This document shows, in pieces, positions 25,462-52,400 of a stretch of 64,000 bases of DNA. Below the pieces are notes generated by a model. It made no database searches, was not told the DNA's origin, and saw only the letters and a program-made list of their open reading frames with translations. Where the stretch lies: contig CM060732.1 of assembly GCA_030704615.1 (NCBI GenBank), positions 24,800,001 through 24,864,000 of the forward strand, read 5' to 3'. This DNA is from Takakia lepidozioides. Its lineage: Eukaryota; Plantae; Bryophyta. Position numbers and translations under genes: made by a program. Within the stretch, counting starts at the first letter, position 1. Every line of letters starts with the position of its first letter.

Positions 25462-25469
25462 CTCGTGGC

Positions 25470-28385: not shown

Positions 28386-30113
28386 TACACTACTAGGGTT
28401 TGTAATGAAGAGCTAGAATGCAAGTCCTTGACTTCTATGCTTCTACTCAAGCAAAAATATGGTCTCTAGGTGGTCATAAGAGGCATCTTCTTGCTCTCTT
28501 CCACCCCAATGTGCAACCAAGAGTGGTCCAACTCAACTTGCAAGTCATTGTCCACCAAATCAATCCCCCTTCTAGTCCTTGGGATTTGATTGCAAACTAC
28601 CATATCTCCATTGCCGAGCAATCATGCATTTGTCTCCTCATCACTTGACAATTGCTCCAAATCAACACAAATTATCTCAATGTGTAGGAGCAATGCTTGT
28701 CACTTACAATAATGCTTCCAAGCAATCCGCCTTGGATCCCACTCTCACGCCATATGCCTCATTTGGGGTCTTGCACCAATCCATCATCCATGTGCTCCCC
28801 GTGGTCATTTGAATGCATGTTTCATGACCTTTTGGCCTATGTGTTGCTCTCCTTCATCATAACATGAATCAACACCTCTCCACTTCACACACAAATGGAT
28901 CTCAAAGGCCTTCACCTCTTGCTAGTTCAAGAGCTCCCCTTCTCAAACTTGAACTTACAAACTCAAGCGAGCATGCTCCACACATGCACCACTTGCTTGG
29001 TCAACTATCCACCACAAAGCTCGCACTACCAAGAGCATGAATAGCCAAGTATTGTCTCCCCCTCTTGTCACATTACATAGTTAGGGTGAAGCTATGCATA
29101 CATTGAATGATGATTTCCCTTCAAGGATTTCCCACCACATGTTCTCCAAGCCCTTCCAATGACACCCTAAGTTTGGCTCCACACCACCATGATTGGAAGA
29201 TTTCTTCACATGCTCCCTTTCAAAACCTCTTGAGCTTCTTAGTGCTCTCCAAGTGCTTGCCCTTGTTGTCTTCAAGCCCAAGCATATATAGCTCCTTGGC
29301 TTCTCTTCCACAACATCCACACTTTGAACTTGCTTAACCCTAGCTTCATAGTGAAATGAGCACTAACAAGCCTTTAGTCACTCTCCACAAGCCATGGCGC
29401 ACACCATCGACTCCATAATGCATACAAAAGATTCTCAAACCCTAGAATCCATGCTTCCACACACACAAGACTTCCTCCTTACAATCCTTGCAAAATCTTG
29501 TGACTCAAGAGCTTTCTTCTCAAGCTCTTCAACTCCTTGGTGCATGCAATAATCGAGCACCTTTCCTTGCAACCCCTTGCAAGCCTTGTGATACAAGAGC
29601 TAAATTCTCCTAGCTCTCAACCTCTTTAAAATACAAGTGCAAAACTAATCCTTACACTCCGCACTCACAAGCATAAGGTGATCTTCTTGTAGTGATAAGA
29701 GATGAGAAATGAGAGAAGTAGAAGACAATGAAAGCTCTCAAAGCATGAAGCAATCACATGAAGAACAAGCCCTAGTCCTTCCAAGTGAAATTCACTCTAT
29801 CACATAAACTAAGTCAAGCCAAGGGCACCTTTGCTAAAGGAATCCACCCTACAAAGCCCTCAACACACTCCCTCTCAATACCTAGAGCTATGGAGGTGAG
29901 AGAAGCTCATGGAGGCTCAACTACAAGAAGATGAGCCTCCTCAACACTCACAAGGGGAAAACCTATCTCCATGTCTCAAGTGAGGCTCGACACCTCACTT
30001 GGCATGTGAGACCAAATGAAGTCCCAACACACAAAATATAAATATAAATATCTAAAATGTCCTAGTTAACTAGAAGTAGGTAATTCTAGATAACCATGAC
30101 TAAAACCATGACA

Positions 30114-30469: not shown

Positions 30470-30840
30470 GAGGTTCATCCTTTGAACCATTTTTGAATTA
30501 CCTCATACTTGTTTGACGACATGTACAATATACTGGCAAAGTTTCAAAACAATCAAAATTTGTTGAATGAAGATATCATTGGTTCACCCATTGCAATATT
30601 TCAAATTGAACTCATACTTGTCCGGTACCTTTAAGAGGGCATGTACAATGCAATGGCAAAGTTTGAAAGCATTCAGAAATCGGCACATCAAGTAACCATT
30701 GGTTCCTCCTGTGAACCATTTTTTATTGATCTCATACTTGTCCGGTCCATGTAAGAGGCATGTAGAACATACTGGCAAAATTTCAAATCATTCAAATTTT
30801 TTTTTATCAATGAACCTTTGGTTTATCCTTTTCACCATTA
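30470..30840 (+). repeat. ~120-bp satellite monomers, forward orientation (left block)
   Basis: Repeating ttggttcacc...ctcatacttgtccggt...gggcatgtac...tggcaaagtttcaaa. Confidence 0.75.
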
Positions 30841-30885
30841 ACGATTAATCACAAATAAATGAACAGACGAATAAATCATTTGCCT

Positions 30886-33800
30886 CCAAATGATTTTGGT
30901 TCGCTTTGAGACTTGGCCAGTATATTCAATGTACCATGGAAGAGGCCCCAGAATAATATTAGATCAATCGAAATTTGTTCAATGGGCCGACAGATGGTTG
31001 CCCATCCAAATGATTTTCGTTCGCTTTGAGACTTGGCCAATGTGTTCAATGTACCCTCTGATAGGTCCTAGTGTAATATGAGATCAATCGAAATTTGTTC
31101 GATGGGCCAATGAGGCGTTCAGTTGTCATCTGGTTTTTGTTCATTGCGAAAAAAAAATCTTGCAATGCGTGCACGGCTATTGCACTCATTGAACAGATGT
31201 GGTTGAAGCCCCTCTTTTGCCCGCATGTGCTTGAACATGTGTGCAACACGTGTGTGGAGACACAACAGACGAATAAATCATTTGCCTCCCCATCGACACC
31301 AAGCCATTCCATAATGTAATTGAATTTAAATTAATTTTAAGCCAATAAATAGGTTTGCACTGCATTTCATTGGGGGTTTCTAGCATGTATCGATTTTGTT
31401 TTTGGCTCAATTTTGTTTTGCAGCTTCAAGCATCCCACTGCTACTCCCCCGCCAAAATTTGGACCAATAAAAAATGCCCCAAAAAACAAATGTTCTCCTC
31501 GCTCATTATTGCAGAACTCTCTATGAAGAGTGCATGAAGTAGAGCACAAATCAAGTTTGGAGTGCAAAATGGGCAAGAAACTGTGGTTTTGGGTCCAAAT
31601 GAATTTTGATCGCTCCCAAATTTGGCACGCACATTGCATATGGAGTCATTACATGCCCCATTCAAAAACGGAATGAAAATATATATATAAGCACGCGAAA
31701 ACGCAGTCCAACAGGTTCCAAAGTAATGGCAGATCCAACATAATACATTCAATGGGTGAACGGATGGTTGCCCATCCAAACCATTTTTGTTTGCTTCCAA
31801 ATTTTGCCAGTACATTCGAGACACCCTCTCATAGGTCCCGGACTAATATCAGATCAATCAAAATTCATTCAATGGCTCAACGGATGGTTGGCCATCGAAA
31901 TGATTTTGGTTCGCTTTGAGACTTGGCCAGTATGTTCAATGTACCATGGAAGAGGCCCCAGAGTAATATGAGATCAACCGAAATTCGTTCAATGGGCCGA
32001 CGGATGGTTGCCCATCCAAATGATTTTCGTTCGCTTTGAGACTTGGCCAGTGTGTTCAATGTATCCTCTGATAGGTCCCAGTGTAATATGAGATCAATCG
32101 AAATTTGTTTGATGGGCCAATGAGGCGTTCAGTTATCATCTGGTTTTGTTCATTGCGAAAAAGAAATCCTGCAATGCGTGCACAGCTATTGCACCCATTG
32201 AACGGATGTGGTTGAAGCCCCTCTTTTGCCCACATGTGCTTGAACATGTGTGCAACACGTGTGTGGAGACACAACAGACGAATAAATCATTTGCCTCCCC
32301 ATCGACACCAAGCCATTCCATAATGTAATTGAATTTAAATTAATTTTAAGCCAATAAATAGGTTTGCACTGCATTTCATTGGGGGTTTCTAGCATGTATC
32401 GATTTTGTTTTTGGCTCAATTTTGTTTTGCAGCTTCAAGCATCCCATTGCTACTCCCCCGCCAAAATTTGGACCAATGAAAAATGCCCCAAAAAACAAAT
32501 GTTATCTTCGCTCACTATTGCAGAACTCTCTATGAAGAGTGCATGAAGTAGAGCACAAATCAAGTTTGGAGTGCAAAACGGGCAAGAAACTGTGGTTTTG
32601 GGTCCAAATGAATTTTGATCGCTCCCAAATTTGGCACGCATGTTGCATATGGAGTCATTACATGCCCCATTCAAAAACGGAATGAAAAAAAATATATAAG
32701 CATGCGAAAACGCAGTCCAACAGGTCCCAAAGTAATGGCAGATCCAACATAATACATTCAATGAGTGAACGGATGGTTGCCCATCCAAATCATTTTTGTT
32801 TGCTTCCAAACTTTGCCAGTACATTCGAGACACCCTCTCATAGGTCTCGGACTAATATCAGATCAATCGAAATTCATTCGATGGCTCAACGGATGGTTGG
32901 CCGTCGAAATTATTTTGGTTCACTTTGAGACTTGGCCAGTCTGTTTAATGTACCATGGAAGAGGCCCAAGAGTAATATGAGATCAACCGAAATTCGTTCA
33001 ATGGGCCGACGGATGGTTGCCCATCCAAATGATTTTCGTTCGCTTTGAGACTTGGCCAATGTGTTCAATGTACCCTCTGATAGGTCCTAGTGTAATATGA
33101 GATCAATCGAAATTCGTTCGATGGGCTAATGAGGCGTTCAGTTGTCATCTGGTTTTGTTCATTGCGAAAAAGAAATCCTATAATGCGTGCACGGCTATTG
33201 CACCCATTGAACGGATGTGGTTGAAGCCCCTCTTTTGCCCGCATGTGCTCGAATATGTGTGCGACACATGTGCGGAGACACAACAGACGAATAAATCATT
33301 TGCCTCCCCATCAACACCAAGCCATTCCATAATGTAATTGAATTTAAATTAATTTTAAGCCAATAAATAGGTTTGCACTGCATTTCATTGGGGGTTTTTG
33401 GCACGTATCGATTTTGTTTTTGGCTCAATTTTGTTTTGCGGCTTCAAGCATCCCATTGCTACTCCCCCGCCAAAATTTGGACCAATAAAAAATGCCCCAA
33501 AAAACAAATGTTATCTTCGCTCACTATTGCAGAACTCTCTATGAAGAGTGCATGAAATAGAGCACAAATCAAGTTTGGAGTGCAAAACGGGCAAGAAACT
33601 GTGGTTTTGGGTCTAAATTAATTTTGATCGCTCCCAAATTTGGCACGCACATTGCATATGTAGTCATTACACGCCCCATTAAAAAACAGAATGAAAAAAA
33701 AAACATGAGCACGCGAAACAGAGTCCAACAGGTCCCAAAGTAATAGCAGATCCAACATAATACATTCAATGGGTGAACGGATGGTTGCCCATCCAAATCA

Positions 33801-34117
33801 TTTTTTTTTAATTCCAAACTTTGCCAGTACGTTTGAGACACCCTCTCACAAGTTCCGGACTAATATAAGATCAATCGAAAATCATTCAATGGCTCAACGG
33901 ATGGTTGGCCATCGAAATGATTTTGGTTCACTTTGAGACTTGGCTAGTATGTTCAATGTACCATGGAAGAGGCCTGAGAGTAATATGAGATCAACCGAAA
34001 TTCGTTCAATGGGCCGACGGATGGTTGCCCATCCAAATGATTTTCGTTCGCTTTGAAACTTGGCCAGTGTGTTCAATGTATCCTCTGATAGGTCCCAGTG
34101 TAATATGAGATCAATCG
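30886..34117. repeat. Higher-order tandem repeat, ~3.2 units of 1009 bp, each with about four ~120-bp monomers in reverse orientation
   Basis: Near-identical ORF-track hits recur with a 1009-bp period (31355/32364/33373; 32146/33155; 31756/32765). The internal monomer is ggatggttgcccatccaaatgattttcgttcgctttgagacttggcca. Confidence 0.93.
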
Positions 34118-34289
34118 TTAACGATTAATCATGAATCATCCAACAGGGGAACTGTTGGTTCACCCTTTGATCCATTTAACATTGACATCATACTTGTCCA
34201 GTAATTTTAAGAGGGCATGTACAAGACACTCGCAAAGTTTCAAATGAATCCAAAATCATTTGGCAGGGGAATGATTGGTTCACCCATAG

Positions 34290-34650
34290 CCAATTTCAGG
34301 GGCTGAAATTGCCATTTATGGGGCTCGAATTGCGAATTTCAGGGGCTGCAATTGCAATTTGAGGGGCTGAAATTGCCATTCCAGGGGCTTCAATTGCCAA
34401 TTTCAGGGACTGCACTAGCAATTGCCATTTCACAAGCTACAGTTGCAATTTGAGAGGCGGGAATTGCCATTTCAGGGGGTAAAAGTGCAATTTGAGGGGT
34501 TGGAATTGACAATTTCAAGGGCTCAAATTACAATTTGAGGGGCGGCCGGGGTTGGTCATTTTAAGGACTGGCATTACCAATTTTAAGGGCTTGAATTGCA
34601 TTTTGAATTGTAATTCAAGGGTTACAATGGGCCATTGGGGGGCTAGAATT
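34290..34650. repeat. ~21-22-bp minisatellite (consensus about aattgccaatttcaggggctg)
   Basis: Roughly 15 degenerate copies of aattgc/caattt/aggggct. Confidence 0.8.
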
Positions 34651-34750
34651 ACCAAAGCAATGACATCCAAAACAATATAAAATCATTTGATAGCGGAATG
34701 ATTGGTTCACCCTTTCAACCATTTTTTATTCACGTCATACTTGTCCGGTA

Positions 34751-35097
34751 TGTCATGGTTTTATTTGTGATTAGTTAGAAATAGTTATTTCTAACTAATT
34801 AGGACATTATACATTTATATTTGTATTTTGTTGGCATTGGGACTTCATTTGGTTCCATGTGCCAAGCGAGGTGGCAAACCTTACTTGGGACGTGAGGAGG
34901 TATCTCCACGTGAGACGTAGGCAGACTCGTCTTCTTCTAGTCGAGCCTCCCGAGGCCTCTCTCGCGGCCATAGCTCTAGTTCTTGAGATGGAGAGTGGGT
35001 GAGGTCTGTATGGTGGAGACCTTCAGCAAAGGTGTCATTGGCTTGACTTATATAACGTGATAGAGTGGTTTCTCCTCTTTTCACCATTTCCGTATCA
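34751..35097 (+). repeat. 5' terminal repeat, LTR part A (A1)
   Basis: Roughly 95% identical (hand count) to 44323-44670. Ends ...CGTATCA and is followed by the self-priming site. Confidence 0.9.
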
Positions 35098-35109
35098 CTA
35101 GAAGAAGAC
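35097..35109 (+). promoter_or_regulatory. Putative self-priming primer-binding site
   Basis: ACTAGAAGAAGAC is the exact reverse complement of GTCTTCTTCTAGT at 34929-34941. There is no TGG-type tRNA PBS. The pairing is conserved with compensatory changes in copy 1 (29681-29693 and 29920-29932). Confidence 0.7.
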
Positions 35110-35842
35110 CTGCTTACATCAATGAGTGCAAGGTGTTAGCATAGTTAGTACTTATGTGTGGAAGAGAGCTTGATAGATAGCTCTTAAGTTACAAGGTGTT
35201 GCAGGGTTTGCAAGAAGAAAGCCTTGTGGTGTTTATGTACAAGAGGAGGTCTTCAAGAAAAGCCCCAATGGAAATTTTGAGAGCTTGTGAAGAAGCTCTT
35301 GTTCTGTAAGTGTTGCAGGGTTTGAGGAGTTCAAGAAGTGCTCGGGTGTTAAGGAAGCAAGCGGTGCATGTGTGGAGCATGGTTTCAGCTTGTGGGAGTC
35401 TTCAACTTCAAGCTTAGGAGAACTATGAGTGGAGGTAGACATTTGATTTCTATTTGGGGCAGAATAGTGTATTTGTAGAGCATGCTTTGAGTTGGAGTTT
35501 CAATCCCAAGCTTGGGAAGAGCATGTCTATGGAAGTGGCAAGTGCAGGGCTGGATTAGGAGCTCTAAGAGGTGCACTATGGCCATAGAAGGAAGCACTAT
35601 GAGTGCATACGATGGCTAGAAGAGGGTATGCCATAGAAGCTCAATAGCTTGTTCTATGCTTGTTTCAATAAGTTCCATAGAGAAAGAGAGCTTGTTGTGT
35701 GGTAAATAGCTTGCTCAGGGAGTTAGAGGCACTCTTGGTGGTCTATTGATGCTCAAAAAACCAAGAACAGCACCTCTGGTTGCTCCATAGAAGCCATAGC
35801 TCATTGCAGTAATAGCAGGGGCAAAGCGGCGCAAACCCTAGC

Positions 35843-36212
35843 TTGGGAACGCGTGTGAACTCCATGGGAACTCAAGGAAACGCGTGTGAACTCATTGGGA
35901 ACTCAAAGGAACGCGTGAGAACGCTTGGGTACTCGTGGGAACTCGTGGGAACACATAGGAACGCGTGGGAACATTGCCCCAGAGTTGGGAGCACCACCAT
36001 TGTCCAATCGGATGAATTATTGAGCCAGTGGATGAAAATTGGCGCTATTGGATGAGAATCGGTTGCAGTGGATGAAACTGCGCCAGAGGATGAAATCTCG
36101 TCAGCGGATGAACTATCACGCTATTGAATGAAAAATTGTGGCGATGGATGAAACTGCGCCAGCGGATGAAATCTTGTCAGCGGATGAGCTATCGCACTAT
36201 CGGATGAAAAAT
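35843..36212. repeat. Short tandem repeats in the copy-2 leader (gggaac/gaacgcgtg and ggatgaa families)
   Basis: gggaacgcgtgtgaactc-type units at 35843-35975. ggatgaaactgcgccag / cagcggatga units at 36005-36212. Confidence 0.75.
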
Positions 36213-39200
36213 CGTGGCGGGATAGAGACTTGGCCATCTTGTAGGTTTATTGAAGCCGCAAGGAGATGGATGGATTTAAGCTGTGGGAGGTGTTGTTGTT
36301 TGAGTTTCTTGTGTTTGGATCCTCCTCCCACACATGCATGCTTGACTGTGCGCCATGCTAGTTTGATTTGGGCACTTGCTTTTATAGGTGGTTGTGCCGG
36401 AAATATTGTGGCCGGCCAATCCTAGAGCGTGCTGTCGGTGGTGAGGCTGGGGTGATGACCAACAGACCATCATTTTTTCTCTTATGGTGAGGCTGGATTG
36501 ATGACCAGCAGACCATAGGAGTGCCTGCGGTGGATGCAGGTGCAGGTGAAGGTTCAGAATATGAACCTAGTATTCCAAACCATAAACCACAACAGATTTT
36601 CTACCCGATTACCTTGTGGAAAGGAGGATTAGAGACGCGTTGATAGCCGGTTTGAGTGTGAGTTTTCATCACGGAGGTGCCACCAGTTACTAAGGAGAGT
36701 GCCGGTACGAGCACATATTAGTGGGTATACAAGACGAGGTGTGCGGTTTAGGCCACCTTCACCTTCAGTGTCTTCTGAGGAAGGTTCAGACTCAGAGTTA
36801 GGAGGATTCTCGCCGAGGGTGCAAGCCATTTTGGATACGATGGAGTAAATGTATGGAGCTACCAAGGGGCCACGTCAGTACTCGGGAGCTGTGGGCACCA
36901 TCGAGCTTGATGATTTCATACATGAGTTTGATAGTTGGTGTTATTTGCAGCAGATGCGCAATCCACAACTGTTTACGCCTTTTATGGCGTAGAAGGGGCT
37001 GTTTCAACACCTTGAGGGGCCGCCTATGGATGATTACTATGAGTTTAGGCGGGGAAATGAGGTGGAGATTGAGGAGTGACGACAATATTGGTCACCTGAC
37101 TATGTCTCCATCACTAGAGGCACAATGGCAGCGGCGATACCAGCAGCTACACCAACATCCCCAACTGCAAGCACTAGTAGTGGGACAAGTAAAGATGGAG
37201 CTAGGAAATCCACTCAAGCTCCTGCTGCACCACCAGTACCCGTGCCTGCCTTTAACCCAGTTGTGGAGTTCTTCGAGGAGTTGAGGAGAAACTACCAGGG
37301 AATAAGGACGGAGAAATTGCGGAGCTTGCAAGAGTTCCAACGCAAGCCTACTGAGAGTTTGAGAGAGGCTTACACGCGCATGAGGCGATTGATAAATGTA
37401 ACCCAAGAGGTTACGGAAGCTCAAGTAGTCCAATTCTGGTATGGGATATTGGACAAGGAGCTAAGGAGAAGGGTGCGGGATGCAACTCTACTACAAGTAG
37501 ACCAACCCACCTTAACAAACGTGTTTTTGCTGGCAGAGCGGATAGAGCTCAATATGGTGGAGGAGCGAGTGGTCATGGTGGGGTTTGGTAAGGAGACACA
37601 ACGAAGTGGGACTCCTAGCCAACAACAACTACTACCCCCAACGTGCTCAAGGCAACAAGGGGGTTCAGACGAAGCCCAGGGAAGGACAAAGATGATCCCA
37701 ATTGCAGAGGTCACTTCCTTCATTCTCAGGCCAACAACAGTCGGGTGTGACATGTTGGGATTGTGGAGGACCCCATGTTAAGAGAGATTGCCCGGAGAGA
37801 GGCAAAGGGTCGGCACAGGCATAGCCTACACAACTACAGTGTGGGCATTGTGGCAAGTATGGGCATGAAGAGGCCCATTGTTATGACTTGCATCCTGAGC
37901 TACGGCCAGGCCAGTTCCAAGGGAACAATGGTGGCCGAGGACGAGGCAATGTAGTCCAGAGAGGTAGAGGAGGCAGAGGTCGCGGTGGAGGTCGTAACCA
38001 AAACCAAGGAGCACAAGGTCAAGGTCAAGGTCGTGACCAAGGCATGGTGGATAGGCTTGCCCAACTAGAGCAACGTCTTGCTGCCATGGCCACTACTAAT
38101 GTGGCGTCAGCTCCAAGGCCTGAGGTTCAAGCCCCACCTTCACAACCTCATATGCCTAGGGAAGACCAGATTGGTATGGGCTTCATGTGTGGAGCCGCAC
38201 TTGCTGGACCATTGCATGTGGACTCTGCAGCTGCTGTCACTCGAGCAGCAACGCATGCTCCTGAGCCAAGAGGAGCAGATGTGGATTTTGATCCACAAAG
38301 AGGAGAAGCAAGTCGACAGACAAGGCTTCCACATTCTTTCACATTGGCTGAGACAGTGCCAACTACGCCATCGATGGTAGCCGCTCATCCAAGTGTTGTA
38401 GAGCCACGAGTACCAGTGGGGAGAGTTGGTGTGGCTCGAAAAATGTCAGTGGGTGGTGCTGCAAAGCAGGGTGCAGCCAGTACATTGTTGGGGGCGGCTA
38501 CGATAATTTGCCAAGCTCCATTGTTTTCTGCGATGACCATTGCAATGTCGGGGATTCGGCCAGCTGCTGTGTTCAGACTAGCAGCTAGACTCTGTGAGAG
38601 TGGTGATGCATCGGCACTATCTGCGGGGATAGCGAATAATGTGCAGTGCATGGATGTCATGGACTCAAGGGTGAAGACAGCCACAGCTGCACCATGGCAA
38701 GCGGCAGCTGCAAGGTTGCAGGAGTTGTCAGCTAGACCAGCCATTGAGCGTAGTATGGTGACTCCTGGGGTAGTCCTGGTGGACAATCAGGATGGTGTGT
38801 TTCAGTTAGGTGGCCCAGCCGGGAAGAGGTATAGGCCACTGCAGGTCTTGTTGGACTCGGGAGCACAGCCATTGATGTTGGGAAGAGCAGCAATTGCAGG
38901 CTTGGGCCTTATAGAGGCGGATTTGGAGCCTTGTCCTTTCCAAATCCAAACATCTTTGGGCGGTTCAGAAAAAGCACGAGGGATTATACGCCATGAGCTC
39001 TTCATTCGATTGCAGCCGGACCATCCTACGGACGGCTCAGTCATGAGAGCTAAAGCCATTGTTACGGACACGATGTCTTATGATGTGCTTGTTGGTGGGG
39101 CGGTGTTATACCCCATGGGATTCACTCTGGACTTTTGGGAGGAAATGACATTTTACAGGCCGTAATGGCAGTCAGGAGATGACCGACGTGCACTGCTCCC

Positions 39201-39567
39201 AGTGCGGTTTATTAGGAATGTAGCGGTGGATCATAGGAACATGATGCCCACATTGGTTGCATTCTCAGGGGTGGTGGCTTGGGGTGGTGAGCTCTTGGAG
39301 GGCAATAGCCATGCAGATGATAGGCCATCACCTGATGATGACAAACAATTGGCATACAAGGCTGATTTGCTTCCTCATGTGCCTGTGCATATTCCACTGT
39401 GGGGTACGGTTGGGAATTTGCATCGAGTAGCAGGCGAGTGTGTGCACCAAGCATGGCGGGAGGCCTTTCCATTGGTGAGTGAGGGGAGTTCAGTGACATC
39501 ACCTGGACCTCCTGAGTTAGCTCCTTTGGACACAGTGCCCATTACCTGGCAACCACCTGACTCAGGG

Positions 39568-40510
39568 ATTTGTTTGCTAGACCTGTTTGGAGGCATGAGC
39601 ACTGGGCTTGCAAGAGTGTTGCAAGCAGGGATTAAAGTACGTAAGTACTTGTATGTGGAGAAGGATGAGATTGCTCGGCGTATTTCCATGCGCCACATTG
39701 CCTTGCTCACACACCGGTATCCTGAGTTGTTGCCTCTCTCAGCAGTTCAAGGGTATCAAAAAGCCTTTCCAGCAGACATTACCTTGCTGGGGGCGGATGA
39801 TTTGCAGCGGCATGGTTCCATTGACTTGGTGATAACCGGATGGCCTTGCCAAGGACACTCTCCTGCAGGTCATGGGAATGGCTTGCATGATGCACGATCG
39901 CATTTGTTTTGGGAGATGTTGCGAGTGTTGGGGGACTTGCAGACGAGGCAAGTGCAACCTTTAGGCTAAATCTTGGAGAATGTTCCTCTTATGGGGGATT
40001 CTCGAGCCAGGGTTATGGCCAGTGTGCATCAGGTGCGGTCTTGGATTGGATCGACGGTGCTATTGGATGCAGCAGCGGTGGGATCACGCATGCATCGACC
40101 TCGATTGTGGTGGACCAATCTTGCACCACCAGAGCTGCTCAAGAGAGCATACGATTCCATTCAACGGCCACCCAATCTCACAGTTGAAGGCATTTTGGAC
40201 CAAGGGAGGCAACCACAGAGAGTGCGACATGATGATCGTCCACCTCTAGCAGTGGTCAATCAAGTGGGGCAGCCACGTGCGGCCTTGCCTACGCTCATGA
40301 GCTTTCCCTCGTCTCATGCTTTCCAAGACAATGGTCCTGGGTTGATTTGGGACAGTGTGCTACAGCAATTGGTGGAGCCCAATGCGGATGAGCGAGAGCG
40401 GGTAGTGGGATTTCTCACCGGCACTACAGATGTGCCAGCTCTGTCAGAGGCATCATGCCGCCAAGTGTTGGGTCAAGCAATGGATTTAAATTGCTTGACA
40501 TGGATAATTT
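39568..40510 (+). other. DNMT3-like C5-cytosine DNA methyltransferase domain inside pol
   Basis: Motif I ICLLDLFGGMSTG, II YVEKDEIAR, III DIT, IV IDLVITGWPCQGHS (catalytic Cys at 39847), V SHLFWEMLRVL, VI ILENVP, VIII RMHRPRLWWTNL, IX DERERVVGFLTGTTDV and X RQVLGQAM, in canonical non-permuted order. Confidence 0.92.
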
Positions 40511-43500
40511 GCTTGTGCATGGCTGAGCAACGGAGATTGCAAGCATTGATGGCTATTTCTACACTCCCATTGGATGGTGCATCCTCCCTGCCAACCGGGA
40601 CGGTTGAGGCAGTGAGTGGGGGTGAGCACAAGATCGCGGGTTGCAAACACCCATGGCAGATGTGGGATGAGATGCGCAAAAATAGAGTCATTGGATCTCT
40701 CAAGCAGTAGTATGAGGAGTGGGGAGAGCCATGGACTGAGGATCAGTTGGAGGCCAAGGTGGCCAAGGTTTTTGAAGAGGTTGAGAATGTTTCTTGCTCA
40801 GAGGATGTTCTCAAGGTGGCTATGGCGGAGCAAGTGGAGGCTACGCCACAGTCAGATTGGGCGGACAAGGCCCAAGAGCCTGGTGTACCCAAGGTTGCAG
40901 TCACTGAGGACAATTGGGAACCAGATGTTGGACCTACAGTCACCGGAGGAGAGAGATGGAGGATCCAGCGATTTCTAAGGGCTTATAGAAATTGCTTTGC
41001 CTTCGGTTTGAAGGATTTGGGGAGTTTGAAGGGTCAGGAGATTCGTATTGATTTGGCAAGTGACACGCCAATCTTTTGAAGGCCCTACCGATATAGTGAC
41101 ATGGAGAGGTCATTGATCCAGTCACGGATTATGGAGTTGTTCGAAGCTGGATTGGTGGAGTTGTCAGGCGGGGAGTATGCCTCGGCAACGGTGATCCCAG
41201 CTAAGAAGGATATCTATGGCAATAAGACAGAAAGAAGGATGTGTGGGGACAATCGTCCTGTGAACCGTCAGACTAAGTCCGATAGATATGCCATGCCAAT
41301 TCCAGAGGAGATCTTTGATGCCATTGGGCATGGAAAGGTGTTTAGCACATTGGACTTGCGATCCGGTTACCACCAGCTGCCAATCAAAAAAGCTGACAAG
41401 CAAAAGACGGCATTCTGGGGGAATGACCAACATGGGAAGGATTGTTTGTACCAATGGCGGTTCTTACCGTTTGGGTTGAAGAATGCTCCTGCAGAGTTTC
41501 AGAGGGTCATGGATAGGATTCTCACGGGGCTAGACTACGCCCGGTGCTATATTGATGACATAATCGTCTTTAGTGCTACGGTTGAGGAGCATGAGAGACA
41601 CCTTCAAGTGGTGTTTGAGCGCTTGAGAGCGCACGAGTTGAAACTGCACCTCGGAAAGTGCAAGTTCTTCCACAATCAGATTGAGTATCTGGGCCACATG
41701 ATATACCCTGGAGGATTGGGTGTTCAACAGACAAAGCTGGAGGCCATTGCATGCATTCCACGCCCCATGGATGTGAGCAGAGTTTGTGCTTTCATGGGAT
41801 TGACAAACTACTATCGACGGTTTGTCAAGGGATTTAGCAGCATTGCAAAGGCTCTTACCAAGTTGACCAAGGTGGGTTAAGAGTGGCAGTAGAAAGAGGA
41901 GCAGGAGGACGCCTTTGAGGAACTCAAGGCTCGATTGACTTCTGCACCTATTCTGAGGCGGCCTATTCGGGGGCGGTCTTTCCAGCTACATACGGATTGG
42001 AGTATGCTGGGGATTGGAGCAGTGCTCACACAGATGGATGATGAGGGAAGGGAGTTCGTAGTGGCATATGCTAGCCGCTCGAACTATGATGCCAAGGCGA
42101 AGTATAGTTCCTATGAAGGGGAGTGTCTAGCTGCAGTATGGGCAGTGGCACATTTCAGATGCTACCTCTATGGCAATCTCTTCACCCTTGTCACGGATCA
42201 CCAACCATTGAAGTGGTTGATGGAGTCAGACAAGCTTACAGGGAAGCTTGCACGGTGGGCACTTATGCTTCAAGAGTACGACTTCCAAGTGGTGCATCGA
42301 GCCGGTATTGTCAATCGGGATGCAGATGGATTGAGTCGTAATCCATGCATGAGCGAGCATGATGATACTGGAGCTCGGTGGCATGGTGAGACTGATGAGG
42401 AGATGGTGCCAGGATGGCATGCATCGGTCTTTTTGTGCATTCTAACAATGGGAGCTCAAGCTGGTCCATCCCATGCAATTGGTCATGTAGATAGCATGCA
42501 TGACGATCCAGAGACTAGTGAGGAGTTTGGTGGTGCTAAGGATGTGCATGAAGATGCAGCAGTATTGGCATACCTTCGTACCGGAGAGACAACATCCAGT
42601 ATGAGAGATCGGGTCCTACAATGAGCCAAGAGGTTCAAGTGCGAGGGGACTCATCTACTCCGGGTATGGGAGGATGGACGAGTGAGGATTGTGCCTCATC
42701 CAACACAACGAGTGCGATTGGTACGCCATGCCCATGAGGAGTTGGGACATTTTGGGGTGCGGCGCACTCATAGTTTGTTGTAAGGGCAGTATTGGTGGCG
42801 GAGCATGCACACGGATGTGCAACACTTAGTGGCAAGGTGCATGGTGTGTGATAGAGTGCGGGCTTCTTTCAACGCTCCTACTCCACAATTGCATCATTTA
42901 TCCATTATGGGTTTGGGCTATCGTTGGAGTCTTGACTTCGCAGGCCCATTGCCACTGACGATTCGCCATAACAAGTATGTGCTGGTGATGGTGTAACACT
43001 TCTCCAAATGGATTGAACTAGTGGCATTGCCTGACAAGGCAAGTGAGGGAGCTGCGTATGCATTCTTAGATCGAGTGCTTAGCCATTTTGGTGCTCCAGC
43101 CGAGGTACTCACGGACCAGGGGAGAGAGTTCTTGGGGGAGTTTCAGGCTTTGTGTGAGCAAGCCTTGATAGATCACCGCACTACTTCTCGGGATCATCCT
43201 GAGGCTGATGGCTTGGCGGAGAGAGTTGTTCAGACAGTCAAGAGAGGTTTGCGCAAGTACGGTTTGCAGAAGGGACACCTAGGAGATTGGGACCTTCAAC
43301 TGCCTTGGCTAGCTATGGGCTATAGGTTCAGCAAACAAGCTTCACTTGCCTCCTTCTCACCTTACTTTCTTCTCTTTGGCCGAGAGCCAGATTTGCCTGC
43401 ATCTAATCGCAGGGAGGTGGTAATAGTTCTCAACCTTGATGATCTGGATGTGTGGACACAAGCATGTGCCTAGCGGGCAGAGTTGTTCAAGAGAGTCATG

Positions 43501-43828
43501 CCTATGGTTTTTGAGAACCTTGCTATTGCCCAACACCGAGACACATTGAGGTACGCCACTATACGTGGAGGGGGATATCGGCCAAGTGTTCGGCGTTTCC
43601 ACCTTGGGGACTATGTGTATCTGCAGCAGACAGCGCCTACGACCTTGGATGTCATAGCAGGACGTGTGATTCTAAGGGTCAGGGAGGTGTTGCCTTCAGG
43701 AGTGTTGATTCTGGAGGGTTGAGATGACATGGTATGGAAGGACCATGTGCGCAATTGTGCACCATATCACCTTCCACGTGTGGATGGGGGGATATCCCAA
43801 CCTTGCAGTGGTACCTGCAGGGTTGCGT

Positions 43829-43963
43829 TGCATGCTATGTGGGCATGCTGGTGGCGCCGAAACCATGTTGGTGTGTGACAAATGCTTAAGGGTGTGACAC
43901 ATGGGATGCTTGACACCGCCACTTGAGGAGGATCCTATCGGAGAATGGTTGTGTCCACGATGC
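43829..43963 (+). other. PHD finger at the integrase C-terminus
   Basis: CMLCGHAGGAETMLVCDKCLRV*HMGCLTPPLEEDPIGEWLCPRC has C4HC3 spacing with WxC. In copy 3 (ORF 59549-59854) it is in frame with the integrase tail. Confidence 0.9.
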
Positions 43964-44235
43964 CTTAAACAGAGGTAGTGGGCATGACAATGGTGAGGTG
44001 GACAAGTGATCCAAGGTCTAGCTAGTGGGGCTTCAATGCCATGGATACTCAACTGAAGATCATGGATTGTATGAAGGCGACTAACGATGGGACTACGTTT
44101 GCACCCGGCCTCTTGATCTATTGCCTTCAGGTGTTGGGACTTGTGCGATTGAAGACCAAGCGATGATCTTATTGGGGTGGATACTTGCAAGCTATCCGGT
44201 GTTAGACGGACCTAATCACCAGCTAGGGGGGCGAT

Positions 44236-44670
44236 TGTGGCGTGGCTTTCTAGGACTATATGCTAGGAAGTGTGGTCGGATAACGATGTATGTTATGACA
44301 CGATGCTTAGGTGCAAGACAGCTGTCATGGTTTTATTTGTGATTAGTTAGAAATAATTATTTCTAACTAATTAGGACATTATATATTTATATTTGTATTT
44401 TGTTGGCATTGGGACTTCATTTGGTTCCATGTGCCAAGTGAGGTGGTGAACCTCACTTGGGACATGGGGAGGTTATCTCCACGTGAGACGTAGGCAGGCT
44501 CGTCTTCTTCTAGTCGAGCCTCCCGAGGCCTCTCCTGCCGCCATAGCTCTAGTTCTTGAGATGGAGAGTGGGTGAGGTCTGTATGGTGAAGTCCTTCAGC
44601 AAAGGTGCCATTGGCTTGACTTATATAACGTGATAGAGTGGTTTCTCCTCTTTTCACCATTTCCGTATTA
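44236..44670 (+). repeat. Intact 435-bp LTR unit = B1 (44236-44320) + GC + A2 (44323-44670)
   Basis: Starts TG just after the PPT and ends TATTA (TATCA in A1). It contains the palindrome GACAGCTGTC at 44317-44326. Confidence 0.8.
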
Positions 44671-44671
44671 T

Positions 44672-44756
44672 TGTGGCGTGGCTTTCTAGGACTATATGCT
44701 AGGAAGTGTGGTTGGACAGCGATGTATGTTGTGGCACGATGCTTAGGTGCACGACA
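44672..44756 (+). repeat. 3' terminal repeat, LTR part B (B2), 85 bp
   Basis: Direct repeat of 44236-44320 with 6 mismatches. Ends CACGACA and is followed by the GGTA duplication. Confidence 0.9.
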
Positions 44757-45920
44757 GGTACTTGTAGGAGAGCATGTGGCTAACACTTGCAAAGCTTCAA
44801 AGCAATGTAAAATCATTTGATAGGGGAACAATTGGTTCACCTTTTCAACCATATTTTACTGACCTCATACTTGTCCGGTACCTTTAAAATGGCATGTGAA
44901 AAACACTTGCAATGCTTTAAAGCACTCAAAAATCATTTGATATGTTCATGATTGATTCACCCTTTCAACCATTTTAGATTGACTTGAAACTTGTGAAAGA
45001 CCTGTAAGAGGGCATGTACAAGACACTTGCAAAGTTTCAAATCAATTTAAAATCATTTGATAGGGGGACGATTGGTTCACCCTTTAAACCATTTTAGATT
45101 GATGTCATACTTCTCAAAGACGTGTAAGATGGCATGTAGAAGACACTTGCAAAGTTTCGGAGCAATAAAATATCATTTCATCGGGGAAGTTTCCGTTCAC
45201 CCTTTCATCCAATTTTGAATTGAACTGGATTTTTACTAAATAAAATGATTTAGAGGGCATTGGATTGTGGGGCGAAATGATTTTATTTTTGGCTTGATTT
45301 TGTTCTGTGAGTTGAACCCTCACACCACCATATCCTTGCCAAAAAATGTACCAAAGAAAAATGTTTGGAAAAAAACGTTCATCCTTTGCTCTATATTCAC
45401 TATTGCAAAACTCTCTATGAAGAGTGCATGAAGTTGAAGATAACTTCACCTTGAAGTGCAAATGAGGGGATAAAATGTGTTTTGGATACAGACGATGTTT
45501 GTTCATGGTGATATTTTGCATGCAGCTCTTTATGTTGTTATCAAGCATATGGCTTCAGAATGTAAGTAAAAACAATTCATGTGCAGGCGAAATGTTGTTT
45601 CTCCTTATGAATTTGAATAACCCTTTCAAACAACTTTGTTGAAGTTCAACTTTGGTCCATATGTGCTTAAGTACGTACAAATCACGTACACAAAGTTGCA
45701 AGCGAAGAAATAATCATTTGCCCCCCGAACGACTCGTTAAACCTTTCAACCAATTTTCAATCATGAATCATTTAATAGGGGAACTATTGGTTCACCCTTA
45801 GAACCATTTTAGATTGACCTCATACTTGTCTGGTAACTTAAAGAGGGCATGTACAAGACACTCCCAAAGTTTCAAATCAATCTAAAATCATTTGGCAGGG
45901 GAATGATTGGTTCACCCATT
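44757..45920 (+). repeat. Continuation of the ~120-bp satellite (forward orientation), with a segment related to the 1009-bp unit
   Basis: Repeating aaaatcatttga...ttggttcaccc...catacttg...ggcatgt. ttgcaaaactctctatgaagagtgcatgaag at ~45403 matches 31509, 32518 and 33527. Confidence 0.8.
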
Positions 45921-46108
45921 GACCCGGTGTACACTGTCACTATTCAAGATTCGTGGGTGTGGTGCTTGATTATCCCATATGATGGACCCAGGTGCCATGG
46001 CCAAGTAACAAACCATTAAAACATTATGGTACGAGACAAACACAATTGAAAACAACATTTATTCAAACATGATGTACAGTCAGAGGTCTACAAGTTTCTA
46101 TCCATCCT

Positions 46109-47542
46109 CTAGCAATTTTTGGGCTCAGGCCAATTGAATAGCCCCGTCATGAAACGCTTCACAACATTTTCTAGTTTGTACCGCAACTCTACTGTGTCTA
46201 CACACAAGTTTTCCAGAGCCGAAGCAAAACAAGTTCTATTAGACATATCGTTGAACAGGCTTGCATCGAACGTGTTACCCCCATTTATTGCCTGGGCTAT
46301 CTTCCCAATTGCAAAGGTCTCTGATGGCACGGTTAGAGGGGGCCTACAAGGTGTGTCATCTGACTGGTTGTTGACTACATTATGAACAATTGCAATTTCA
46401 GGTGCAATCCACCATCTATGTGCGAGAGTCTTTATCATCTTGTCTCTGCTCTCGAAAATGTACAACGTGGTTTTTGGGTCATCCGTCGTGGAGACCATCC
46501 CCCAATCGCATATCCCGATGTACACATCTTCAGACCCTTGTGGAAAATGCAACAAGATGTTGTCGAGGGACATGTCGTTGTGCAAGAGGTGGTGATTATG
46601 GACGTTGAGCATGATGTGCAAAAGCGCCCATGCCAATTGGGTGCGATTCTGTTGGAATCGAACCAGTCGGTTGACCTCCTACATTTCCTGCTCTGTCCCC
46701 CGTCATTCCATTAACTCCCTGTTATCCTGATCATTCCCCCATTTCTTGTCAATACTCAACCATGATCGTATGGTCCCCCCATTCCACCAATGTGTGTAAC
46801 CTTCATTTCGACGTGGATGCAATACAAAATACTTTATGATGCCGAAATGATGGAACTTTACAGCCAACGCCTCATTGTTATGTTGGACTTTGGCAAGCTC
46901 AGCATTTGTTTCCCTGGGCGTTTTCCCTGCTAGCTCCCAAGATGGAGAAATGAATTGATCCCCAACAATTCTACCCCTCCGAATTGTACCATACCCTCCA
47001 TGTTTGGGCGCGTCGAGTTGTTGTACCTGTGCGTTTGTGGATATGTATCTCACGTTCAATGCCGCATCCGCGGACGAGGACCCTGCCTTTCATGGGAGTG
47101 GTTTCATACGTCGTTTGGCGTGGGCATTTGCCATGTCAGACCACCAATCCACAAACACAAACAACTCCTCCTCCGAAGTTGGCATGCGACTTTCAGCTAC
47201 AGGTGTTCTTGTAACAAACTTATCCATGGTTTGCCTCAGATTCCATGTGGCATCATATTCATCCCCGGCCAAAGCCTCCCTCATTCTCATCTCCATATTG
47301 TGCTGGAATCTAAGGAACCTCTCATTCCCATGTTGGACATACAAAAGATTCAAACGCATTATGTCATTGTCCTTCAAATAATCCAGCACTACTTGCTTCA
47401 CCACCTTCGCGGCCTCTGCGTTTGGATAGTTTTTTTTGTTGACCTGACTATCCCGTTCATGTGCATGTTTACGCTTCTTACCTTTACGCCCACTTCCCGA
47501 GGAACCCCCTGATACTGCGTTCGAAGCAACGTTTCCGGACAT
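46109..47542 (-). pseudogene. Intronless divergent protein kinase (~477 codons) with three in-frame stops
   Basis: ORFs 47090-47752, 46703-47059 and 46109-46636 share one frame. Kinase motifs: GGYGTI (Gly loop), LAGK, NNEAL, HNDMSLDNILL (catalytic loop), ICDWG, WWIAPE and SETFAIG. ATG at 47542. Confidence 0.8.
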
Positions 47543-47831
47543 GATGAAAGTACTTTGCAGAATAGATGTGGCTTCGTAACGGAAAACTAAACCCAGACTA
47601 TTGATAACCTTATATACTAGCAGACCAATTTCTTCACCCTCTATTGGTATAGTACCCAAAGCAAACTCTCCCGCAGTCCCAGGAAAAAAAAGCAAAAACT
47701 CCTCCCCCTCACAAATCCACTTTCTCCCCACCCCACGCTCAGTCCTGGCCACCGAAGTTCAAACTCCAAGAAGCCCCAGAACCGCACTCACAGAGAGGAA
47801 AAAAAAGTGGGTTGGGAATGAGGGGTAGGCC

Positions 47832-47904: not shown

Positions 47905-48392
47905 GAGCGGTCGCACCTATGGGTGGTCGCAGCTAATCACAAAATAAAAAAAGTGCTGCGACCCTCCCCTGCTGGTGGTCGCACATTTTTAAAAACAAAA
48001 CAAAAATGTGCGACCCCCCATAAGCGGTCGCACCTAATAACAAAAAAGAAAAAGTCTGTGACCACCACCGGCTGGTGGTCGCACCCATTTAAAAAATAAT
48101 TAAAAATGTGCGACCATCCCCTGTTGGTGGTCGCACCTATTTAAAAAAAATGAAAAAGTTGCGACCACCACCTTCTGGTGGTCGCACCCAATTTTTTTTA
48201 TAAAAAAAATGTGTGACCACCCTCTGCTTGTGGTCGCACCTATTAAAAGAATAGAAAATGCTGCGACCACCACCTGCTGGTGGTCACACCCATTTAAAAA
48301 TTAAGAAAAAATATGCGACTACCCCCTTCTGGTGGTCGCACCTATTTTTTTTCTTAAAAAAATTGTCCGACCACCCTTTGCTGACGGTCGCA
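47905..48392. repeat. Array of about 10 palindromic units TGCGACCacc-N-ggtGGTCGCA, ~52-bp period, A/T-tract spacers
   Basis: Units at about 47957, 48009, 48057, 48109, 48160, 48212, 48262, 48314 and 48366, plus a partial unit at ~47908. Confidence 0.88.
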
Positions 48393-49463
48393 TTATTGAC
48401 AATATAAATAATAATATATGAAATTTATAGATAAATAATGAGGCCACATCGGTTGCCACGTCGGTTCTCATAGTAAATAATCAATAGTAAAGTAAAAAAA
48501 TAAACATATTTATGTACAGTAACGTTGGTTTAGGACGTGACGTGACGCACGTCCGTCGCTGATGTCGGACGTGACGCTGATGCGTCAACGCCACGTCACG
48601 TCCAAATTTGCAACTAGGCCACCTGGCCCTGCACGTAAGGTGTAGGCATGGCGTGTGCCCCTGGGCTGAGTGTTCACCCGTGCGAAATGTGATGCAGTGG
48701 TGGCGTCGGGATTTAGGATATCATCTTCCCGCGCGAATGTGATGTCATTTGTTTCCTGCTCTGAGTTTTCTGTGTAATGCGAGTTGCGGGGCAGCTCGTC
48801 GAATGCGTTGTGTTGCAATGGTTATCAGGATTTGATGACACATCTTCGCTGTGATGCAGGGGCACCACTCCGTTCTGATACCGTGGCTTTGTGCTTTCTG
48901 TTTAGGGTTGCTTTGCATTTCTTCTGCATTTTTGTTGCTCGATTAGACCTCTAGGTTAGCCTGCCTTGAATGAGAGGTGACACATCCTAGATGTCGCACC
49001 TTCACTGTGCTTGGTTGTTTGTTTTCATTTCCACTCTTCATAGTTCATTTGCACCGCTCTTTGTATTACTGCATGGAGTGGCTTATATTGTCTTGAAGGC
49101 TTTCATTGCATTTGTGTTGCGCTTTGTGGCAGGGTGTGGAGTGGGCGCAGGCAAAGAATGGCTCCTAAGCGGGAGCACACAGGCAACAGTGCCACCCGCA
49201 CCTCCACCACGCCTTGAAAAGGCTTCACATATTCTCACTACTTGGGCGTTAGAGACACAACATGCTATGTCAAAGGATCAATTGAGTGTCATATCAGTTG
49301 TCAAACGACTTCCTATTGAGTTTGCCACCTCCACCTCGTGCCAGCCGTTGGCCAAAACGGCCTCTTGGGCATAACTTCTGCTTTTGTTTAGGAGGCAAGT
49401 TGCTCTTTCGCTAGGGTGGAAAGAGTGTACAACCACACACTTGAAAAAATAACATCAAAATAA

Positions 49464-52400
49464 TTAAGCCTTGGAGCTCTCAATTGGGGCTTTTGGTTTG
49501 GGGATCTCAATTGGAATCCTAGAAAGGTTGAGGGCTTGTAGTGTTACTTCCACACGCGCTGGCTTGGTGATAAACTTGTCGTGGACATTGCATGGCAAGT
49601 CGTGTCCGAGTACCATTGAATCTTCTACTTGAATTTCTAAATTCGTCTCGGATTTATCGTCCACTTTATGAGGTGAACTATCTTTCAAGTTCATGATCTT
49701 CACCACTGATGAATTCACAACTTTTTGGCATACCACAAATTCGTCTTGTGGTTTGAGGATCCCTATAGCTTTAGCATGGTCGATTGCTAGCTTCAATATC
49801 AACTCGTTTATGTTACTTTTTGGATTTTTCTGCAAACACCATTCAAACTCCCAAACGTCTCAATTGTCTCATGATTGCAATGCATTTTATTCAAGTTAAG
49901 ATTGTTTGATCTCACATCACAAGACTTGATCATCTTGATGTTCAATTTTCTTCCATGAATGATGTGTAGGGTAATTCACGAAGCAAGTTATTTTCTTTTC
50001 CTCACCAATAGCGTACGTATAAGTATAATATTTGTGACAGTGTGCTACTAAACATGTAGAAATAAGAGTTAAGATTAAAGTATTGTTCACCATGGCATCA
50101 GCTATGAGTTCCAAACTTTGGTCCCCATCATCATATTCATCAAATGCTTTAAAGGGATTGCTCCTCAATTCCTATGATGGAAAACATAACATTTTCCATG
50201 AAAATGCAGTTACAATATTTCCGGGAAGATGTGATGAAAATTCTACCTTTCTCTCACAAGATCATGAGAGCTTTGGCTCAAATCCCACTCCCCCGTACAA
50301 ACCCAGTATCTATAAGCTATCTATTGTATTTTTTTATAAACAAAAAAGAGTAAAGATGATCTCAATATTTACAGATTATAAATATAAATATTTTTACAAT
50401 TGAAGAAAATCTCACAGGTTTTTTTGGATCAACCAGCACAGGAAATACCCCTCTAATGGCCATACATTGTCTCGCCTACATAACAATCAAACAACTTTAT
50501 TTCAAAACCTTGATCTCAAGAAATATTATAAAAATATTATAGTAAATAATTTTATGTAATAAACCATGAAAAACATGGTTGTGTTCTGAAGCAAAGTCCA
50601 ACCTAATTCTCAAGGAAACCCCGTATTTGGAGACTGCCTCGGAGTAGAGGATAGCGAACAATAAGATTAATGGTGCAATCACCGCATAGCACAAGGCAAT
50701 CGTAACGATATCAAGATATTGGTTTAGTGAGACTCAGCCTTAATGGTTGATGGTGCACAGTTGCAAATACTTCACATGTTTAGAAAATAAGTGTGATTTT
50801 CATTATGCAACAACTCACCAGAAATGGACCACTAAAACACCAGTGTGCACCCGTTTTTGTAAGAGTTGGAATAATAACCGCCAGCGTTGGCATCGATGGC
50901 CGGTACTTCGCAACCAACCTAATGCAATCCGAACAGTTGTATTACTACAAAATATACACAACTATTGCATCAAAAAAATTCCATGAGAAATGTATTTGTG
51001 GTCGATTGCAAGGTATAGGACATTCAATTGATGTTCAAGTACATACATGGTATTACTTACTGAGCAGCTCGTCCTGTGGTTGTAAATACAATTATCACCG
51101 CAGCTCTCATCTTTGTAGCTGTCCTCACCTAGGTGACATGCAAACAAAATCATCAAATCAATCATATGTCGGCTTTGGTTATGGATTTGTCTTCTAAAAT
51201 ACAAGGTCCTTAAAAGTACTGCATGAAAGAGACCATGACTTTCAAGAGTGCATTTATTGATTTGAGCATGTAGGAATTGTAAGGTATGTAGATGCATACC
51301 GCAGATGATATGATGGACTCAAGATGTTCCATTGGCTCACCCACAAACTTCAGAGTTCTTTTCATGTGTTCAAGTTGATTGTATACCTTCTCTGCCTGTA
51401 GTTAAAAAATATATTCTCATGTACAATATTTATTCAGATTATTTTTAGTCCAAATAAATTTTTAGCTCATAGAATCATTAGCATCATAATGGCATATATG
51501 TAGATTTTTTTTTTAAAAAAAAATTTGTCGGTATGAGATGAATACATCAAAACAAATTATTAAGGTGAACTGTGAACATATAAAGCAATACCTAAAATAC
51601 ATTTTGTTTTAAAGAAATTAGTGTGCATTATGAAAATAAAAAAATTGGGAAGAATTTTTACCTCGGCGCATATTTTTCCAATGACGGAGATAGTTTCAAT
51701 AGGATATGGGCCTTTGAGGGTCTCTGCTCCTAACAAAATCCCATCTACACCTGCAATTTTTTTATTAACATGGGGCCTAGAAGGTGAGACTTGAGTCACG
51801 GATGAGTAGAAAGAATTTGTTATTTTGCGGCCACCAAATCCATCCATTGAATTTGAAACTTTGTAATGGTGAGTGGGTGGAGTGTGGTGTGAGGATATTT
51901 TCTGTTTTTTTGGATGGAATCAGTTGGGCTTTGATGGATAAGACTTGCCTATGATTCATATTCAATCATAATCACTATAAGCTGATTAGAGAAGACCACT
52001 CCTAAGTAAGACTCCGCCAAACAGAACTCATTTTCTACATTCGATATTCATTGGACCTCTTTTGGGCCTCACTATGTGCCCCTAGGCCCAACTTTGCCAA
52101 ATTTGGAGTTTGCAGGCCGCTTATAACTTATAACACATGTGTATGTATGGCCACTGACACTAATGGCAAGTAAAAAAATTATAATTTCATATGGTGGTTA
52201 GGACCATAATTTGGTCGGTTGGGTTAGGGTACATAAACCCATGACCGCCACTATGTGTATGACCGCATACCCAAAAATGCTTTTAAAGTTAGGGCCCATG
52301 GACTGCCAGTGCTATCCCCAAGACTGCTCCTTTTTTGTCACTGGCTAAGGATTATTCAATAAATTCCCCAAAAATTGTGATTGGTCATAGAGTCAGGGTG

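Follow-up and report, generated by a model that had tools for sequence, protein, structure and literature searches.

Gypsy retrotransposons that carry a Dnmt3-like cytosine methyltransferase are already known from an alga, Klebsormidium nitens (PMC5890265). KnitGypsy-Dnmt3, as that paper describes it, is a Ty3/Gypsy element with an intronless, non-permuted Dnmt3-like domain under purifying selection and with repeats in the DIRS-like order A1...B-A-B; the 2018 survey from which it comes took in no liverwort and no Sphagnum. SymbioDIRS-Dnmt3, described in the same paper, is also a retro-borne DNMT3, and its de novo CG methylation was shown in yeast, but it belongs to the DIRS class, has a dinoflagellate host and represents an independent capture. 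The EpiLTRs and DAM-LTRs (10.64898/2026.05.21.726589) are LTR elements that join a methylase to a chromatin reader; their methylases are described as adenine enzymes or relatives of DNMT4, paired with a chromodomain, and they are called distinct from the streptophyte Gypsy-DNMT3 elements. Finally, Ty3 elements of the Tf1/Sushi and Tcn1 groups, which occur in mosses, are described as having a primer site complementary to their own LTR in place of a tRNA site (PMC6317226).

Here we describe a dead Ty3/Gypsy copy of 10,006 bp at 34751-44756 on the forward strand of the window, by which we mean the whole stretch of DNA analysed, 64,000 nucleotides of Takakia lepidozioides. A sequence-only reading had proposed an element of the charophyte kind in an apparent land plant, and both parts were borne out: the host is a bryophyte, and the Gypsy domains, the intronless Dnmt3-like domain, the signs of selection and the split direct repeats are those described for the algal element, from which it differs in having a land plant as host (PMC5890265). 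With Tf1/Sushi and Tcn1, as described in PMC6317226, it has in common a primer site complementary to its own LTR; it is set apart from them by a PHD finger at the integrase end, permuted ends and the methyltransferase. In the literature searched (Repbase, theses, most subscription journals and the main supplement of PMC5890265 lay outside its scope) we found no land-plant element, no account of the stop described below and no permuted-LTR reading. We regard as reasonably likely the explanation as a whole, namely that the insert is a dead copy from a bryophyte Ty3/Gypsy family whose Gag-protease-DNMT frame would methylate the element's own new cDNA within the particle.

The insert is flanked by 4-bp duplications of GGTA (34747-34750 and 44757-44760, +), the left one lying within a unit of a 120-bp satellite, and an empty-site joint (34746 to 44757, with 4 letters in common) was present in two of four sequencing runs. 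The satellite into which the element was inserted extends over 30470-34750 and 44758-45960; it has a higher-order unit of 1009 bp in three repeats (30809-34135), and 21-bp repeats lie at 34272-34559. A 5' leader of about 1.7 kb (35100-36700), holding a 76-bp tandem pair at 36026-36177, precedes a Gag region with zinc knuckles (36840-37900, +; PF03732, E 1.5e-4, under the curated cut-off), which is interrupted by stops and by a frame break near 37635. With stops read as X, one frame (37825-43800) runs through zinc knuckle, aspartic protease (38755-39165, +; LLDSGA at 38848-38865), C5-methyltransferase, reverse transcriptase and RNase H (41080-42345, +; RVT_1 E 5e-30, RT_RNaseH E 1e-33, YIDD at 41548) and DDE integrase (42680-43400, +; a zinc finger and the D, D and E motifs at 42931, 43111 and 43213). 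The relative P0186 gave a Pfam match to Asp_protease_2. A C-terminal PHD finger (43826-43975, +; PF00628, E 9e-12) lies beyond a frame break, and no Pfam match to a chromodomain was found in the element. The 11 in-frame stops within 37825-43800 mark this copy as dead. Its assignment to Ty3/Gypsy is based on the order Gag-PR-RT-RH-IN, the DDE integrase, a polypurine tract, a primer site, TG...CA ends and the short target duplication. In place of two complete identical LTRs, its ends are A1 and B1-A2-B2, and a complete B+A unit is present once, internally. The integrase core with its zinc finger, and the lack of any recombinase match in the frames scanned, place it outside DIRS, PAT and Ngaro.

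Two further copies lie on the reverse strand. Copy 1 (23807-30113) comprises an A repeat, Gag, protease and DNMT motifs I-VI before it is truncated, and its leader, with 92-bp repeats (28037-28396), is longer than that of the insert. Copy 3 (59187-62560) comprises the last DNMT helix, the family stop (62234), RT-RH-IN-PHD, the polypurine tract and a single B end. Elsewhere in the window, 7313-16000 (+) holds an intron-rich host gene for V-ATPase subunit a. Over 17 exons (787 residues) its identity is 76% with both Sphagnum and Calypogeia, against 70% with a lycophyte and 66-68% with seven angiosperm proteins, which places the host most probably among the mosses or liverworts. Exons on the reverse strand at about 17600-21250 resemble what we take to be an NDUFAF5-like methyltransferase, and others at about 49460-52300 (-), some apparently degenerate, presumably a cytosolic pyruvate kinase. 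An intronless, broken kinase-like frame (46109-47758, -; Pkinase E 8e-7, below cut-off), adjoined by short tandem repeats at 47937-48399, may have been carried by a transposon.

Within 39565-40530 (+) the motifs of a C5-methyltransferase follow each other in canonical order, DLFGG (39580), GWPCQ (39838) and ILENV (39970) and then HRPRLWW (40093), ERERVVGF (40390) and QVLGQAMD (40462), and the domain matches PF00145 with 46.3 bits (E 5.1e-12) against a cut-off of 22, so that the domain reported from the letters alone is confirmed. That reading had also taken the catalytic PCQ and ENV to be intact: both motifs are present, but an in-frame stop at 39967-39969, lacking in intact relatives, directly precedes ILENV. 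Copy 1 does share the domain, as had been stated, with motifs I-VI at 24249-23807; a stop lies immediately upstream of its PCQ, and the copy breaks off after ENV. The nearest PDB sequences were DNMT3A (E 1.6e-12) and DNMT3B (1.7e-7), followed by DRM2 (1.4e-3) and M.HhaI (0.011), and a profile from 20 relatives left this order unchanged (DNMT3 2.5e-19 versus DRM2 5e-6 and HhaI 9e-6). An AlphaFold model of the intact relative P0031 (pLDDT 74) matched DNMT3A by Foldseek at E 9e-17 and DNMT3B by VIA-align with Z 26.2 (rmsd 3.0, 277 aligned); M.MpeI (22.6), M.HhaI (20.7) and DNMT1 (17.6) scored lower. Neither single-sequence nor profile searches gave a sequence alignment between the corresponding stretch of the domain and the DNA-recognition loop of DNMT3A. 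The domain is not circularly permuted and is closer to DNMT3A/B than to DRM, DNMT1/MET1/CMT, DNMT2 or the bacterial enzymes, in agreement with the earlier view that it is DNMT3-like and not a permuted plant DRM. Compared with animal DNMT3A/B, it has a like fold and motif order, but only about 22% identity and no ADD or PWWP domain, and it is intronless and fused to Gag-protease. Moss PpDNMT3 (PMC6453930) ranks beside these among the nearest known enzymes. By sequence and model, then, this is a DNMT3-like C5 cytosine methyltransferase with predicted catalysis, and we hold the identity of the domain and the architecture of the element as described here with high confidence.

The DNMT had been read as part of a single polyprotein, in one frame with the protease upstream and the RT downstream. 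The shared frame stands for the insert, but the single polyprotein does not hold for the family. TAG or TAA occupies one column between DNMT and RT in all 40 independent linkers from outside the window, 38 of which come from one Sphagnum-like family, so that about four DNA lineages, together with the ends of proteins, are the basis for the stop. CAA CC follows directly 3' of the stop in 38 of the 40, the family signal being TAG CAR CC. Every one of the 26 in-frame linkers stops at one codon, the next commonest stop occurring in six, and 47 of the 48 proteins with motif X and an HPW motif end within 84 residues; the gene models P0009 and P0012, which run into RT, failed to match the motif X and HPW pattern and fall outside this count. 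When all four sequencing runs were compared, the other copies were found to carry TAG CAA CCA within 42 nt that are missing from the insert at 40877/40878. A second candidate for the family stop, the TAG at 40708, was rejected, since about 98% of the depth in run X1 had a sense codon there, and across the four runs this TAG is private to the window copy. Judged from the linkers and protein ends compared, the DNMT is the C-terminal domain of a Gag-protease-DNMT frame (ORF1) and not part of Pol, and its continuity with RT is a trait of the insert copy through the 42-nt deletion, not of the family. The one-ORF arrangement of DNMT with RT and RNase H known from KnitGypsy-Dnmt3 is thus not that of the bryophyte family; it was seen only in the insert and in certain relatives of algal type, P0242 and P0258 among them.

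RT-RNaseH-integrase-PHD lies in frame behind the conserved stop, and RT keeps the frame across it in all four lineages, for which reason we consider it probable that Pol is made by readthrough of the family stop. Around this stop the sequence is similar to UAG-CAR-YYA, the readthrough signal of tobacco mosaic virus. In the Sphagnum-like family an in-frame ATG stands two codons past the stop, and an RNA stem 3' of it recurs in folds, with z of only -0.6 to -3.0 in nine sequences. A spliced RNA might make Pol instead, a short GT-AG intron removing the stop and the window copy being a retrocopy of such an RNA; this rival stands because the 42 nt lost from the insert are in frame, begin with GT, end with AG and hold the stop. 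An AG-GTT 9 nt 5' of the stop in 43 of 50 linkers (duplicates kept) and in L032 speaks in its favour, as do the occurrence of AG-GT at that distance in three lineages and the Sphagnum and Marchantia gene models (P0022, P0012) that skip the stop region and join DNMT to RT. However, a 2-nt microhomology deletion would account for the ends of the lost 42 nt as well, a plant intron of that length would be a short one, none of the 40 other linkers is without the stop, and L055 has no donor 9 nt before it. Moreover, readthrough, unlike splicing, demands both the in-frame RT in all four lineages and the kept CAR-CC context, and we judge splicing distinctly unlikely. As the conserved stop follows it, the DNMT would be made at the Gag level under readthrough or splicing alike.

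The repeats of the insert are arranged as A1...B1-A2-B2. A1 (34751-35097, +) starts with TGTC, ends with TCA and is 95% identical to A2 (44323-44669, +). A1 is directly adjoined by a primer-binding site (35098-35109, +; fold z -3.6), which has no TGG start and so is not a tRNA 3'-end site; its exact 12-nt complement, the likely self-primer, lies inside A1 at 34929-34940 (+), and such a complement was matched by none of 1453 control starts. At the other end, the polypurine tract AGGGGGGCGA (44225-44234, +) stands directly 5' of B1 (44234-44320, +), which ends with GACA. Because the tract directly precedes B1 and the self-priming site directly follows A1, the true LTR is B+A, with B as its 5' part and A as its 3' part, and is permuted at an internal palindrome, GACA-GC-TGTC at the B1-A2 joint (44317-44326, +), the putative integrase cut site. 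B2 (44670-44756, +) closes the insert, and the A2-B2 joint would be an end joint between two LTRs. Locus L064 has LTRs that cannot be aligned with those of the window, yet palindrome, polypurine tract and self-primer complement are common to both; its complement is 16 nt long, unlike the window's in sequence, and was matched by none of 1033 control starts. An exact primer complement of at least 7 nt was lacking in 16 of 28 tested A ends, which belong to decayed copies. The palindrome occurs at all seven B1-A2 joints (four exact, three with transitions), and target duplications of 4 bp flank the window insert and all seven loci with both ends. The reading in terms of polypurine tract, self-primer and internal cut site is made here for the bryophyte element; we found none for KnitGypsy-Dnmt3 in its description (PMC5890265).

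Since LTR-type reverse transcription cannot copy B2 from RNA, B2 must have been joined at the DNA stage. We therefore propose, as a reading with an even chance of being right, that the insert arose by integration of a 2-LTR circle cut inside the LTR. Self-primed reverse transcription would yield linear B-A...B-A DNA, the ends of which would be joined into the circle; integrase would then nick after CA on both strands of GACA-GC-TGTC, leaving CA-3' ends with 2-nt overhangs and a permuted insert. Of the seven A-B joints, five are clean and alike, and two (L043/L044 and L054) keep remnants of the primer site or polypurine tract together with filler, as would be expected of new end-joints. The first of these two is a rearranged copy: at L043 (12674-13570) it includes an inverted fragment of A, its A-B joint keeps a remnant of the primer site, and it may be an autointegration product. 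Members of the IS3 family, which are bacterial DNA transposons, probably also insert through a circle junction; the bryophyte element differs from these in its retroviral-type DDE integrase with polypurine tract and primer site.

The same layout occurs in PAT and Ngaro elements (PMC7192593), whose insertion is likewise described as probably passing through a circle junction but which have a tyrosine recombinase where the bryophyte element has a DDE integrase. It is conceivable that templating regenerates the A1...B1-A2-B2 ends, as it does in those elements, without LTR-LTR end-joining: besides the layout itself, only the 3' B-A-B form was seen, and most of the A-B joints are uniform. The mirror form A-B-A was found at none of 22 independent 5' ends, though a 2-LTR circle offers two equal cut sites, and this counts against the circle route. 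Templating is made somewhat unlikely, however, by the lack of a tyrosine recombinase among the Pfam matches of the Gag and pol frames, by the presence of a DDE integrase with 4-bp duplications, by the two joints carrying primer-site or polypurine-tract remnants, and by the position of the polypurine tract exactly at the start of B and the primer site at the end of A, an arrangement in which reverse transcription of the LTR type would leave B2 uncopied. Also weighing against the circle route is the excess of single-B ends, 13 including a partial nested match, over B-A-B ends (five, plus one cut by a contig end). Single-B ends were set aside as proof of 1-LTR-circle integration by the pair L033/L077, which share a flank yet differ in the form of their ends, the transversions between their bodies exceeding those of the flank sixfold; some single-B ends may arise after insertion, by later recombination, or in assembly, by collapse.

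Named relatives of the domain were found in Marchantia polymorpha, M. paleacea, Calypogeia, Riccia and three Sphagnum species. Liverwort and moss rows of nearly full length were 62-70% identical, one gapped Sphagnum row 55%, and Closterium relatives 33-37%. Marchantia has several uninterrupted Gag-PR-DNMT frames of 1278-1281 aa, annotated only as hypothetical proteins, and a literature look-up of six Marchantia gene ids returned no paper; two such frames, Mp_Vg00370 and Mp_Vg00540 (P0151, P0152), have V-chromosome gene ids. The metagenome loci, 80 in number and all selected by DNMT, collapse to 63 independent groups; where enough flank was available, 43 of 50 independent loci had a protease upstream of the DNMT, and 39 of 47 had RT downstream of it. 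These relatives and this recurring context bear out the claim of a family trait as opposed to a one-off capture.

A profile search gave 512 clusters (50% identity) at E <= 1e-30, and seven weak matches (E about 1e-6) were found in the viral collection. Among 146 new top profile rows the commonest full order was RT-RH-DNMT-IN-PHD (36 rows), and WECQ replaces WPCQ in 60 of these 146 distant relatives. In P0176, P0217, P0225, P0240 and others, all of them Gypsy-like polyproteins, this DNMT is placed between RNase H and integrase and a PHD finger is present; the set, a large one, is possibly hosted by green algae. P0176 has an extra region C-terminal to its PHD finger (residues about 2270-2411) with DMFAG and ITSP-like motifs, which is possibly a second methyltransferase and gave no Pfam match at E 0.01. 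Both domain trees were built from retro-borne rows only. In the FastTree tree (106 rows, midpoint root, leaving out rows without a full domain or readable neighbour), 13 rows whose DNMT either follows the protease or precedes RT lie with seven bryophyte-type rows on the same side of a branch (support 96). Closterium accounts for four of ten looked-up rows of this arrangement, sharing the PR-DNMT order as well as the branch, and since its rows fall on the bryophyte-type side, inheritance of the element from streptophyte algae is plausible. No Klebsormidium-named match occurred among the named rows of the domain searches. Sphagnum rows are nested among those of liverworts, which may reflect transfer or old paralogy.

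Between window copies 1 and 2, dN/dS is 0.16 for DNMT motifs I-VI (143 codons), 0.23 for the linker and 0.09 for the protease; among the metagenome loci it is 0.50 for DNMT, 0.90 for the linker and 0.36 for RT, all of these latter values being inflated by post-insertion decay and the pairs not independent. Full DNMT segments are stop-free in three of 49 metagenome loci, to which the uninterrupted Marchantia frames can be added. Stop-free copies and selection among copies had both been proposed as tests of the sequence-only reading, and both support it: the domain is under purifying selection. Alternatively, a single capture from a host DNMT3 might have left it as a neutral passenger, given that its dN/dS exceeds that of RT and that some copies have DNMT-internal deletions. 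Values far below 1 largely refute such a history, and with the 62-70% identity kept across liverworts and mosses despite saturated synonymous sites, and with so many clusters at E <= 1e-30, we consider it very improbable.

Under the working proposed for this selected domain, the particle would be built from Gag-PR-DNMT, so that the methyltransferase would be packaged at the Gag level, far above RT and integrase, and leaky readthrough of UAG-CAR-CC would yield Pol as a minority product bringing RT and integrase-PHD. The DNMT would methylate element DNA before or at integration, the PHD finger would steer the integrase to chromatin, and new copies would arrive pre-marked for silencing. We lean slightly towards the element's own cDNA as the target of this predicted activity. 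Among the possible benefits raised in PMC5890265 are that copies so marked would be taken for host heterochromatin and that the host would suffer less harm. Alternatively, the enzyme could act in trans or at the target, methylating insertion-site chromatin or competing elements, or bind without catalysis. Amounts at the Gag level would exceed the need of one cDNA, the integrase carries a PHD reader, and the insert sits in a satellite array. A protein fused to Gag is carried into the particle along with the cDNA, which counts against action in trans or at the target, and the conservation of motifs I, IV, VI, VIII and X across liverworts and mosses argues for catalysis, so that we regard this alternative as unlikely. 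In its favour, the Klebsormidium domain gave no methylation in yeast, a result that its authors call inconclusive (PMC5890265). We considered whether the mutation context might betray the activity of the enzyme that the element carries, and dropped it as uninformative on this point: C-to-T decay affects 30% of CG, 31% of CHG and 11% of CHH sites and looks like that of ordinary host methylation.

Beyond the single family, we suggest tentatively, at somewhat less than even probability, that a green-lineage LTR group integrates closed circular cDNA, its DDE integrase cutting at the palindrome inside the LTR in place of using the ends of linear cDNA, and that its bryophyte members package a Gag-level DNMT3 which would methylate the circle before insertion. 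The element extends DNMT-carrying retrotransposons from algae to land plants, including the model Marchantia, and the question raised in 2018, of what use the enzyme is to the element, can now be tested in a plant with methylation mutants. Such copies can also inflate DNMT gene counts in bryophytes and confound methylome genetics. Circles with two LTRs are usually treated as dead ends. If the permuted ends do reflect circle integration, a DDE integrase uses them as a substrate, and this would, if true, give retroviral-type integrases a new way into the genome, one that includes a step of self-silencing.
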